From a virus, in IMG/VR virus record IMGVR_UViG_3300026097_000805, positions 115,648 to 179,647 of that record: a DNA stretch of 64,000 nt, one strand, 5' to 3'. Under the pieces are notes generated by a model. It was not told the origin of the DNA. It ran no database searches and saw only the letters and a list, made by a program, of their open reading frames with translations. Both the position numbers and the translations under genes were made by a program. Shown piece after piece: positions 1,355 to 39,598 of this stretch; within the stretch, counting starts at the first letter, position 1; each line of letters starts with the position of its first letter.

Positions 1355-1447
1355 TGGCGGTGAGGGTGGGATTTGAACCCACGGAACGCTATTAACGTTC
1401 GTCTGTTTTCAAGACAGGTGCAATAAGCCGGACTCTGCCACCTCACC
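1355..1447 (-). tRNA. tRNA-Ser(TGA)
   Basis: 93-nt type II cloverleaf, CT-TGA-AA, CCA. Confidence 0.94.
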
Positions 1448-1454
1448 AATAAAT

Positions 1455-1740
1455 TGGCAGCCCGTTAGCCACACACCGTTGGAATGATGCTTGTGACCCC
1501 TACACTGTAATAGCCCTGCTGTCTAGTTTATCAGTCTAGGGCACAAACTATTGTTTAGGTATAGGACTTTTGCTTCTCACTAAAGACCGCCACGGACCAA
1601 CGGACGGCACTCTTTAGAACTAACACTAATGCAAAGAGCAAGTGGTTAACCAATGCATCGACCTAGTTACTTGATAGACTATATCATATCTTTCGCTACT
1701 ATCGGGCGGTTCAGGCCCTTATCGCCGTCTCTTTCGAGCT
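1455..1740 (-). ncRNA. Unknown ~286-nt structured RNA with acceptor-like stem and CCA end
   Basis: 5' AGCTCG pairs with 3' CGGGCT-G-CCA; several internal hairpins; occupies a tRNA slot in the array; no T-arm, no ORF. Confidence 0.6.
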
Positions 1741-1750
1741 AGTGTGTAGT

Positions 1751-1826
1751 TGGTAGCGGGAGCAGGAATCGAACCTACCTCAGTCCGGCTTATGAGACCA
1801 GTGAGTTCCCAGAACTCTATCCCGCA
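1751..1826 (-). tRNA. tRNA-fMet(CAT), initiator-like
   Basis: CT-CAT-AA loop, 1:72 mismatch (T/T), CCA. Confidence 0.85.
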
Positions 1827-38947: not shown

Positions 38948-39063
38948 ATAAAATATTCCTTTTTTCTTATTTGGAGTGAGTTTGTTGCCCACTTAGTAAT
39001 TATAGATATGCCGAGTATTTTGCACTTGTTCTAGAGCGGATTTAAGTTGATTTTGAGTATAAT

Positions 39064-39097
39064 AAAAAAGAGTGTTGCATCGCTACAACACTCTTTT
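39064..39097 (-). terminator. Terminator after tmRNA
   Basis: AAAAGAGTGTTG-8nt-CAACACTCTTTTTT. Confidence 0.8.
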
Positions 39098-39104
39098 GCT
39101 ATGT

Positions 39105-39393
39105 TTGATAACAAGGTCTAACTACCTCGTAGCGATTAAGCCGCTAATGCCGTTTCTGGCGCATAATTGTCGTTTGCAATTATAGTTTTCGTTCGCGTTA
39201 ACCGAGCTTACATCCGGACAACTCCACTTACCTATTAAACGTCAATCGATCCTATCTCAGCCCCATCATAAACACATGCCCGACGTTTCTTATGTCTCAA
39301 TATGCTATCTGCATATCCAGCACATGTGCTTATGGTGGAGCTGCCGGGATTCGCACCCGGGTCTTGTCCGTCGTTGAGTTTGCTTCAACGTTG
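39105..39393 (-). ncRNA. ssrA: Two-piece circularly permuted tmRNA, tag ANDNYAPETALAA
   Basis: Acceptor piece ...CCGGGTGCGAATCCCGGCAGCTCCACCA (CCA ends 39333), spacer, coding piece from GGGGCTG (39264), G3:U70, tag ORF 39136-39177; outer ends approximate. Confidence 0.92.
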
Positions 39394-39424
39394 TAGTATA
39401 TTTATAACACAATTCTAAAATGTG

Positions 39425-39598
39425 TCAACCTAAAAATACCAAACCCCAGCCGTGATTGGCAATTGCATTCAGTATAATAGCAAGACAGGTAGCAATGTGT
39501 AAAAGTATCCACACTGTGCGGATCATTGCTACCTTATCTGCTTTGCGGTCGTCGTCATAGGCTTTGTGACCTATAGCTTTACACCACAGTTCCCACAT
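39425..39598 (-). CDS. Small membrane protein (57 aa)
   Basis: Manual translation MWELWCKAIG.KA..DD..ADKVAMIRT. Confidence 0.6.
   Translation of the reverse strand: MWELWCKAIGHKAYDDDRKADKVAMIRTVWILLHIATCLAIILNAIANHGWGLVFLG

Follow-up and report, generated by a model that had tools for sequence, protein, structure and literature searches.

The element at 1,455–1,621 on the minus strand of the window is probably a member of a conserved family of phage RNAs with a pseudoknotted, acceptor-like end (we estimate the probability at roughly 0.7). By the window we mean the whole 64,000-nucleotide stretch of viral DNA that was analyzed; it forms the final 64 kb of an IMG/VR virus record of 179.6 kb, which is judged to be about 50% complete. 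On the minus strand of the window, ARAGORN and Rfam identify a permuted tmRNA and two arrays with 20 tRNA genes in total. Using search patterns and a covariance model, we found about 46 distinct sequences of the RNA family on over 60 contigs of uncultured phages. Family members range from about 75 to 170 nt, and the element in the window, whose conserved unit is about 165 nt, is a long form. The RNA most likely mimics the acceptor/T-arm half of a tRNA and has no anticodon arm. The features of the element and its surroundings, in 5' to 3' order along the minus strand, are:

1,751–1,826, minus strand: tRNA-Met(CAU), the upstream neighbor of the element (ARAGORN and Rfam)
1,622–1,750, minus strand: lineage-specific 5' spacer, outside the family core; it holds AGCUCG, GACGGC and ACCGCC
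1,455–1,621, minus strand: the conserved RNA unit, long form; full-length match to covariance model R1
1,612–1,617, minus strand: 5' strand of the distal S1 helix, pairing with 1,580–1,585; in long-form members only
1,609–1,611, minus strand: 3-nt bulge after the 5' strand of distal S1
1,603–1,608, minus strand: 5' strand of the S1 stem, 6 nt, pairing with 1,586–1,591
1,599–1,602, minus strand: loop 1 of the pseudoknot, CGUU, with U at −1 and −2 ahead of G+1
1,592–1,598, minus strand: 5' strand of S2, acceptor-like positions 1–7, within the S1 loop
1,586–1,591, minus strand: 3' strand of the S1 stem, directly after S2 with no spacer
1,580–1,585, minus strand: 3' strand of the distal S1 helix, pairing with 1,612–1,617
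1,567–1,579, minus strand: joiner J1, ending in a conserved AAR before P2
1,498–1,566, minus strand: variable hairpin P2, with its base at 1,559–1,566 and 1,498–1,505 and an insert at 1,506–1,558
1,491–1,497, minus strand: linker starting with GUC, which resembles the variable loop of tRNA (GGUC)
1,473–1,490, minus strand: P3, a 5-bp hairpin with an 8-nt T-loop-like loop (1,478–1,485) that includes UUCCA
1,466–1,472, minus strand: joiner J3, with an invariant GCUA at 1,466–1,469
1,459–1,465, minus strand: 3' strand of S2, acceptor-like positions 66–72, pairing with 1,592–1,598
1,455–1,458, minus strand: discriminator G73 and encoded CCA, with the next tRNA 7 nt downstream
1,355–1,447, minus strand: tRNA-Ser(UGA), the downstream neighbor, which starts 7 nt after the element's CCA

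As the original prediction had it, the element fills a slot between tRNA-fMet and tRNA-Ser, and it ends in an encoded CCA like its neighbors (G-CCA at 1,458–1,455). Neither ARAGORN nor Rfam 15, even at E ≤ 10, calls a tRNA, a tmRNA or another Rfam family within 1,455–1,750. With gathering thresholds, Rfam 15 finds only the tRNAs and the tmRNA in the window, and at E ≤ 10 it finds only the flanking tRNAs in this stretch. For two homologues, Rfam gave only chance-level or neighboring-tRNA matches and no known riboswitch family. The 286-nt stretch that had been proposed as a single RNA has no ORF, as predicted, and blastn with the element against 50,697 phage records gave no match. Its folding energy is ordinary compared to dinucleotide shuffles (z = 0.07), so the evidence for structure is entirely comparative.

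To find relatives, we started from an exact 16-mer from the 3' end of the element, which hit two viral contigs, both of them matching the element in two colinear places. From these, two conserved motifs were derived, one around the loop of the 5' hairpin and the other before the 3' end, and search patterns were built on both. The motifs UUGGYCCGUGGCG and GCUAACGG retrieved most of the members, so their invariance is partly circular. Pattern scans gave true members from viral contigs and from metagenome contigs. In a scan of 185,579 species genomes, there were just 2 true members, both on MAG contigs (Marivivens and Rhodobacteraceae); the other 17 of the 19 matches to genome contigs were due to chance, as their S2 had no 3' complementarity. 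One further member (L169) came from a pattern in which the outer stem alone was fixed, with no constraint on the loop. We then had a covariance model, R1, built on 14 long-form members, and with it we found a diverged second copy in each of L149 and L138. The window's member matches R1 over the full length of the model (1,455–1,621, 120.3 bits, E = 2.9e-27), and it is the single copy that R1 finds in the whole 179.6-kb record. Other probes were not useful: an exact 16-mer from J1/P2 gave chance matches only, and blastn with two other members against the phage records gave only chance-level matches of 19–29 nt. Two blastn matches were rejected, one in Vibrio phage sm030 because it sits in a coding region, and one in VPs20, which has a similar 5' hairpin without a 3' partner.

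The family does not appear to be a host gene, because it is nearly absent from the genomes searched and because the DNA that flanks the carriers' copies varies from 29% to 61% GC, with no protein found that is common to the neighborhoods of all of the lineages. Also, R1 has no match in 150 other genomes of the same taxonomic family as the genome with the Marivivens locus (L115). We did not find this RNA family described in Rfam 15 or in the literature that we searched, including motif searches of full texts and supplements. Possibly, it is listed without a name among the 10,006 candidate RNAs that were catalogued in PMC10690425.

The original prediction had named covariation among homologues as a test of the RNA, and we found it to be strong. 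In a MAFFT alignment of the 14 long forms, pairing holds in 98.2% of the cells, and 11 of 32 pairs have changed on both sides; none of 500 shuffles reach the observed values, and controls with slid partners are 34–48% paired. In an alignment of 43 sequences to the model, which is biased towards the model's nested helices, 94.2% of the cells pair, both sides have changed in 23 of 32 pairs, and none of 500 shuffles match on any measure. The S2 pseudoknot helix lies outside the model, and although absent from it, S2 is 99.3% paired in this alignment. Furthermore, four features were demanded by none of the search patterns: the CCA, G73, the UCCA loop, and the helices P2 and P3.

S2 is the helix that makes the element acceptor-like. 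The strands equivalent to 1,592–1,598 and 1,459–1,465 form 7 of 7 pairs in every member. Pair 3-70 is CG, UA or UG, and pair 2-71 is GC, AU or GU. In two members whose retrieval did not constrain S2, the helix is compensated: L169 has GAUCCGU/ACGGAUC, and the second copy in L149 has GACCCGU/ACGGGUU. In a close relative (from runs X2 and X15), G1 is changed to A at window position 1,598, where it faces U72 (window position 1,459). Because the 5' strand of S2 lies within the S1 loop, its pairing with the 3' end forms an H-type pseudoknot; N73 (mostly G) and CCA come next.

The S1 stem has 5–6 bp and loop 1 has 3–4 nt in all 44 pattern-defined members, in one common register. Across these 44, pair 5 of S1 is CG, GC or UG, and pair 6 is GU, AU, CG or GC. 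Loop 1 is GUU, CUU, CGUU or UGUU in all members; the UU was demanded by most of the search patterns, and L169, which was retrieved with the loop free, has it too. The distal S1 helix of the 14 long forms also covaries: columns 4–8 pair with columns 39–43 as GC/AU, CG/UA and AU/CG/GC/UA, and a relative's A-to-G change at window position 1,581 retains the pair as G-U. Two of the internal helices that were originally listed are conserved as well: CUAAAG/CUUUAG is distal S1, and GCCCU/AGGGC lies within P2.

The long third loop of the pseudoknot holds a fixed series of elements. J1 includes AAGUC or AAAUC in 41 of 44 members. The base of P2 has changes on both sides at 7 of its 8 pairs, and its insert varies from a UUCG tetraloop to over 70 nt; the differences among close relatives are mostly in P2. 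A GGGUC linker is present in 29 of 44 members. All 5 pairs of P3 have changes on both sides. It had been claimed that the RNA has no T-loop, but 1,473–1,490 is a covarying 5-bp hairpin with UUCCA in its loop, and UCCA or UUCCA is found in the P3 loop of 42 of 44 members. The GCUA of J3 is present in 44 of 44, though most patterns demanded it; three members that were retrieved without demanding GCUA also have it. This order (P2, the GUC linker, P3 with its UCCA loop, and the GCUA joiner) holds in the window's element.

Given this architecture, it is very unlikely that the element is one 286-nt RNA, closed by a terminal stem of AGCUCG and CGGGCU, with two crossing 6-mer complements (GACGGC/GCCGUC and ACCGCC/GGCGGU) that act as a switch. 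The 3' strand of the supposed terminal stem is committed to the covarying pseudoknot: in every homologue, it pairs with the hairpin loop, with compensatory changes. The proposed 5' partner is in a segment that no homologue shares, and it folds locally. These complements do exist in the sequence, and AGCUCG is also found upstream in L003; however, it is part of a local hairpin both in the window and in L003. As for the crossing 6-mers, the number of six-base complements that link the 5' segment to the core is at chance level (4, versus a mean of 4.3 in 1,000 dinucleotide shuffles). Against the S1/L1/S2 region alone there are 3, versus 0.94, and 9.6% of shuffles reach this. The element does have a pseudoknot, but not the one that was suggested by the crossing 6-mers. 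The ordinary folding energy of the 286 nt also counts against the larger unit.

The conserved part is instead about 165 nt (1,455–1,621), and the 120–130 nt on the 5' side have no counterpart in homologues: in all other members, the 5' segment is absent or unrelated. The spacer at 1,622–1,750 does not resemble the corresponding spacers of L166, L036, L135, L003 or L101, and the longer spacers (those of the window, L166, L036, L003 and L101) are mutually unrelated. What speaks for the 286-nt unit is that the 5' segment is well kept in very close relatives. Among these relatives, from two DNA runs, the spacer has 3 differences in about 124 nt, while the core has 9 differences in about 122 nt, mostly in P2. 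The spacer may be a lineage-specific extra domain.

The prediction of a non-coding, tRNA-like RNA gene within the array is supported by the family as a whole. The CCA end is under selection, being found exactly at the 3' position in 41 of 44 members without any pattern having demanded it; 33 of 44 have G as N73, and the spacing to flanking tRNAs is tRNA-like. Of these members, 22 lie within 400 nt of a tRNA on the same strand. In 10 members, the next tRNA begins 7–8 nt after the CCA. The distance from the end of the upstream tRNA to the UUGG motif (1,597–1,600 in the window's element) is 18–23 nt in 8 members, most of them long forms, which implies that the unit starts a few bases past the preceding CCA.

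In its acceptor sequence plus G73, the family most resembles the tRNA-Asp of the phages themselves: the mismatches average 2.1, and one match is exact. This likeness, the GGUC-like linker and the T-like hairpin suggest that the family descends from a tRNA gene, and the sequences hint at a phage tRNA-Asp. (We also noticed that the tRNA-Asp genes of the carriers L136, L142, L146, L169, L081 and L166 have acceptor stems that are unusually near to S2, all with G73; in L166, the 5' strand of S2 is identical to that of the tRNA-Asp at L166:9351–9424.) We considered that the GUC linker might mimic the anticodon of tRNA-Asp. This is unlikely because the linker is at a junction about 13 bp from the CCA and not at the tip of an arm; also, GUC is missing in 15 of 44 members. 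The T arm of a tRNA directly adjoins its acceptor stem. In the family, 5–20 nt separate P3 from the acceptor strand (7 nt in the window's element), so P3 may not serve as a T arm.

The likeness to tRNA-Asp, the GGUC-like linker and the T-loop-like hairpin, along with the lack of any ARAGORN or Rfam call, could be expected of a decayed tRNA gene or a neutral spacer with no function. However, the core motifs are nearly identical, and compensatory changes are maintained, across phages whose flanking DNA varies from 29% to 61% GC. Neutral decay is incompatible with this, and we consider a functionless relic to be extremely improbable.

We propose that the RNA is a tRNA half-mimic that would work as follows. 

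S1 and S2 together have 13 bp with no spacer, which would allow coaxial stacking, and S2 probably stacks on S1 to give one continuous 13-bp helix; the acceptor and T stems of a tRNA add up to a similar 12 bp. The RNA would be transcribed together with the tRNA array and released by the enzymes of tRNA maturation. Because of U(−1), G(+1), R73-CCA and the geometry of the pseudoknot, it is a likely substrate for RNase P, with a candidate cleavage site in loop 1, between window positions 1,599 and 1,598. Bacterial RNase P cleaves an engineered pseudoknot in loop 1, given a 3' RCCA, and prefers U at −1 (PMC12710915). Cleavage at this site would yield a two-piece or 5'-trimmed RNA. The mature RNA would then act in trans, by offering its tRNA-like CCA end to a factor that reads acceptor ends.

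Which factor this might be is suggested by the distribution of the family. Unrelated phages retain the family, and hardly any of the bacterial genomes that were searched have it, so the partner is expected to be the host's conserved tRNA machinery or something that attacks it. Our first-ranked, tentative suggestion is that the RNA serves as a decoy or competitor against an enzyme or toxin that targets the 3' ends of tRNAs. Roles as a substrate for charging or for CCA metabolism rank below this. A more specific version, which we consider doubtful, is that the putative decoy is matured by RNase P and counters a defense system that attacks the 3' CCA of tRNAs (for example, nucleotidyltransferase or pyrophosphokinase toxins), or else that the RNA is charged and used outside of translation. 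No gene for a CCA-adding enzyme and no Ro/TROVE gene was found in the 179.6-kb record (which is about 50% complete).

The RNA might instead act in cis, as a processing or stability element with no function as a free RNA. It would be a signal for RNase P or an exonuclease that punctuates long transcripts, separating tRNAs, the mRNAs of small ORFs, and late genes, or capping their ends. The ability of RNase P to cut pseudoknots in loop 1 (PMC12710915) fits with this idea, and so does the variety of transcripts that contain the element: tRNA arrays, after a small ORF, upstream of terminase, and beside lysis genes. Outside of tRNA arrays, copies are found upstream of terminase genes (L002, L097 and L100). 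The copies beside lysis genes are in L096, L099, L104 and L109, and copies directly follow an ORF for a small membrane protein in L014, L081, L029, L098 and L101. As that ORF stops a few bases before S1, the short-form element is the 3' untranslated end of the small ORF. Yet the commonest place for the element is the slot between tRNAs, where an extra processing signal is not needed. Conservation also takes in J1, GUC, the UCCA loop and GCUA, which is far more than a cleavage site would need, and some phages keep two diverged copies. Overall, a purely cis-acting role seems rather unlikely.

The diverged second copies are at L149:760–872 and L138:2488–2616 (both on the minus strand), each beside a long-form copy. 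The one in L149 immediately follows a tRNA, and its S1 and S2 sequences differ from those of the first copy, with compensation. As for the small ORF, in one phage lineage it encodes about 55–60 amino acids with two hydrophobic helices and lies within a tRNA array (L014:500–715; also L081, L029, L098, L101, L095 and L133). Scans for promoters and terminators around three stand-alone copies found none. By eye, L002:3874–3960 has a hairpin with a long loop and then a U-rich run, about 40–75 nt past the CCA; this is absent from the terminator scan. Short, low-depth Logan contigs from RNA libraries (contigs, not reads) overlap 1,495–1,607 and 1,610–1,826 of the window, and these could reflect carry-over of DNA.

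Three members lack CCA, and two of these, in L097 and L100, point to another kind of cis-acting role: a riboswitch-like or protein-binding regulatory pseudoknot, in which the 3' strand of S2 sequesters or frees the downstream sequence. Both variants (L097:1076–1168 and L100:185–274, minus strand) lack P3 as well as CCA. The 3' strand of S2 is directly before, or overlaps, the start codon of a gene that we identified as the terminase large subunit from its N-terminal sequence only. In L097, the 7-nt 3' strand of S2 is tandemly duplicated. These variants may be cis-regulatory derivatives of the family. For the family in general, we consider a regulatory pseudoknot to be highly improbable: most members have a tRNA or nothing downstream, the CCA is conserved, and there is no match to known riboswitch families.

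The array holds a second unexplained gap, at 2,420–2,480 of the window (minus strand, about 60 nt), between tRNA-Asn and tRNA-Ser(GCU). It has a 6-bp hairpin (CUAACG/CGUUAG) and a GCCA end that is 9 nt before the next tRNA. Neither ARAGORN, Rfam nor model R1 gives a call there.

Phage tRNA arrays are usually viewed as sets of tRNAs that supply codons or that counter host defenses, and the non-tRNA RNAs in them have been without explanation since RNAC and RNAD of phage T4 were discovered. The persistence of this family in unrelated phages (with flanks of 29–61% GC) points to conserved host tRNA machinery as its target. If the RNA is indeed a decoy or is charged, then this would be a new principle of counter-defense or tRNA mimicry in DNA phages, shared across unrelated lineages. 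The family also provides a natural pseudoknot as a candidate for RNase P, and a compact mimic of half a tRNA. For annotation, the unit should be corrected from 286 nt to about 165 nt.

Several known RNAs can be set aside as identities for the element. It is not a canonical tRNA (RF00005): it has the 7-bp acceptor, the discriminator and the 3' CCA, formed via a pseudoknot instead of by pairing of the 5' and 3' ends, but not the cloverleaf with a D arm, an anticodon arm with a 7-nt loop, and a contiguous T arm. It is not the tmRNA, as had been stated at the outset: the sole tmRNA call is separate, at 39,045–39,446, and the element has no Rfam match at E ≤ 10. (The tmRNA, on the minus strand, is of the permuted, two-piece type, with the tag ANDNYAPETALAA; it scores 111 bits with Rfam's tmRNA_permuted and 86 bits with alpha_tmRNA, which points to a host with the same type of tmRNA.) By eye, AAGUCC/GGCUAA resembles RNase P RNA, but these motifs are accounted for by P2 and J3, and there was no Rfam match at E ≤ 10, which we take to include the RNase P models. 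A group I intron in a tRNA gene would leave tRNA halves, and neither ARAGORN nor Rfam finds any; again there was no Rfam match at E ≤ 10. Resemblances by eye to SRP RNA, 5S RNA, group I introns and tmRNA were dropped because the comparative structure explains the motifs.

Other RNAs are informative as relatives in kind. The TLS elements of plant RNA viruses (of the TYMV, BMV and TMV types) share a pseudoknotted acceptor, a single-stranded NCCA and a T-loop-like element with the family. They mimic tRNA for host enzymes. Plant virus TLS elements are substrates for RNase P in vitro. However, a TLS is at the 3' terminus of a plant RNA virus genome and carries identity elements for a defined synthetase, while the element is a gene in a tRNA array of a DNA phage. 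Also, the pseudoknot of the TLS uses a hairpin near the 3' end, and in the family the unit starts with the hairpin at its 5' end; the family lacks an anticodon-like loop and has no sequence similarity to the TLS.

The tRNA-like domain of tmRNA is another anticodon-less mimic with an acceptor stem, a T arm and CCA, and this phage encodes one. In tmRNA, it is the 5' and 3' ends themselves that pair, and there is a G3-U70 pair and a tag ORF. In contrast, the family's pair 3-70 is C-G, U-A or U-G (U-G in the window), its acceptor forms through a pseudoknot, and an ORF is absent. Among engineered RNAs, the biotin-aptamer pseudoknot, a substrate of bacterial RNase P, is likewise an H-type pseudoknot with a 3' RCCA, and it is cut in loop 1 with a preference for U at −1 (PMC12710915). 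The family, in comparison, is a natural RNA and a candidate substrate. The C4 antisense RNA of phages P1 and P7 and the bacterial YrlA (Y RNA-like) are small RNAs with tRNA-like modules. C4 antisense RNA is processed by RNase P. The element matches no Rfam family at E ≤ 10, which would include C4 and YrlA if that release has models for them.

By position, the closest comparison is to RNAC and RNAD (species 1 and 2 RNAs) of phage T4, which are also small stable non-tRNA RNAs from a cluster of phage tRNA genes. A T arm is present in RNAC and a terminal CCA in RNAD, and the roles of both are still unknown (PMC3014915; PMC9697503). They differ in lacking the family's S2 and GCUA motifs, and at E ≤ 1 model R1 does not hit the tRNA region of T4 (L172). 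The family is nearest in function to the plant-virus TLS and the tRNA-like domain of tmRNA, and nearest in position to RNAC and RNAD, and it is a member of none of these. Mimics of tRNA are already known as a kind of RNA; what is new here is a family of phage tRNA-mimic RNAs with a well-supported structure.
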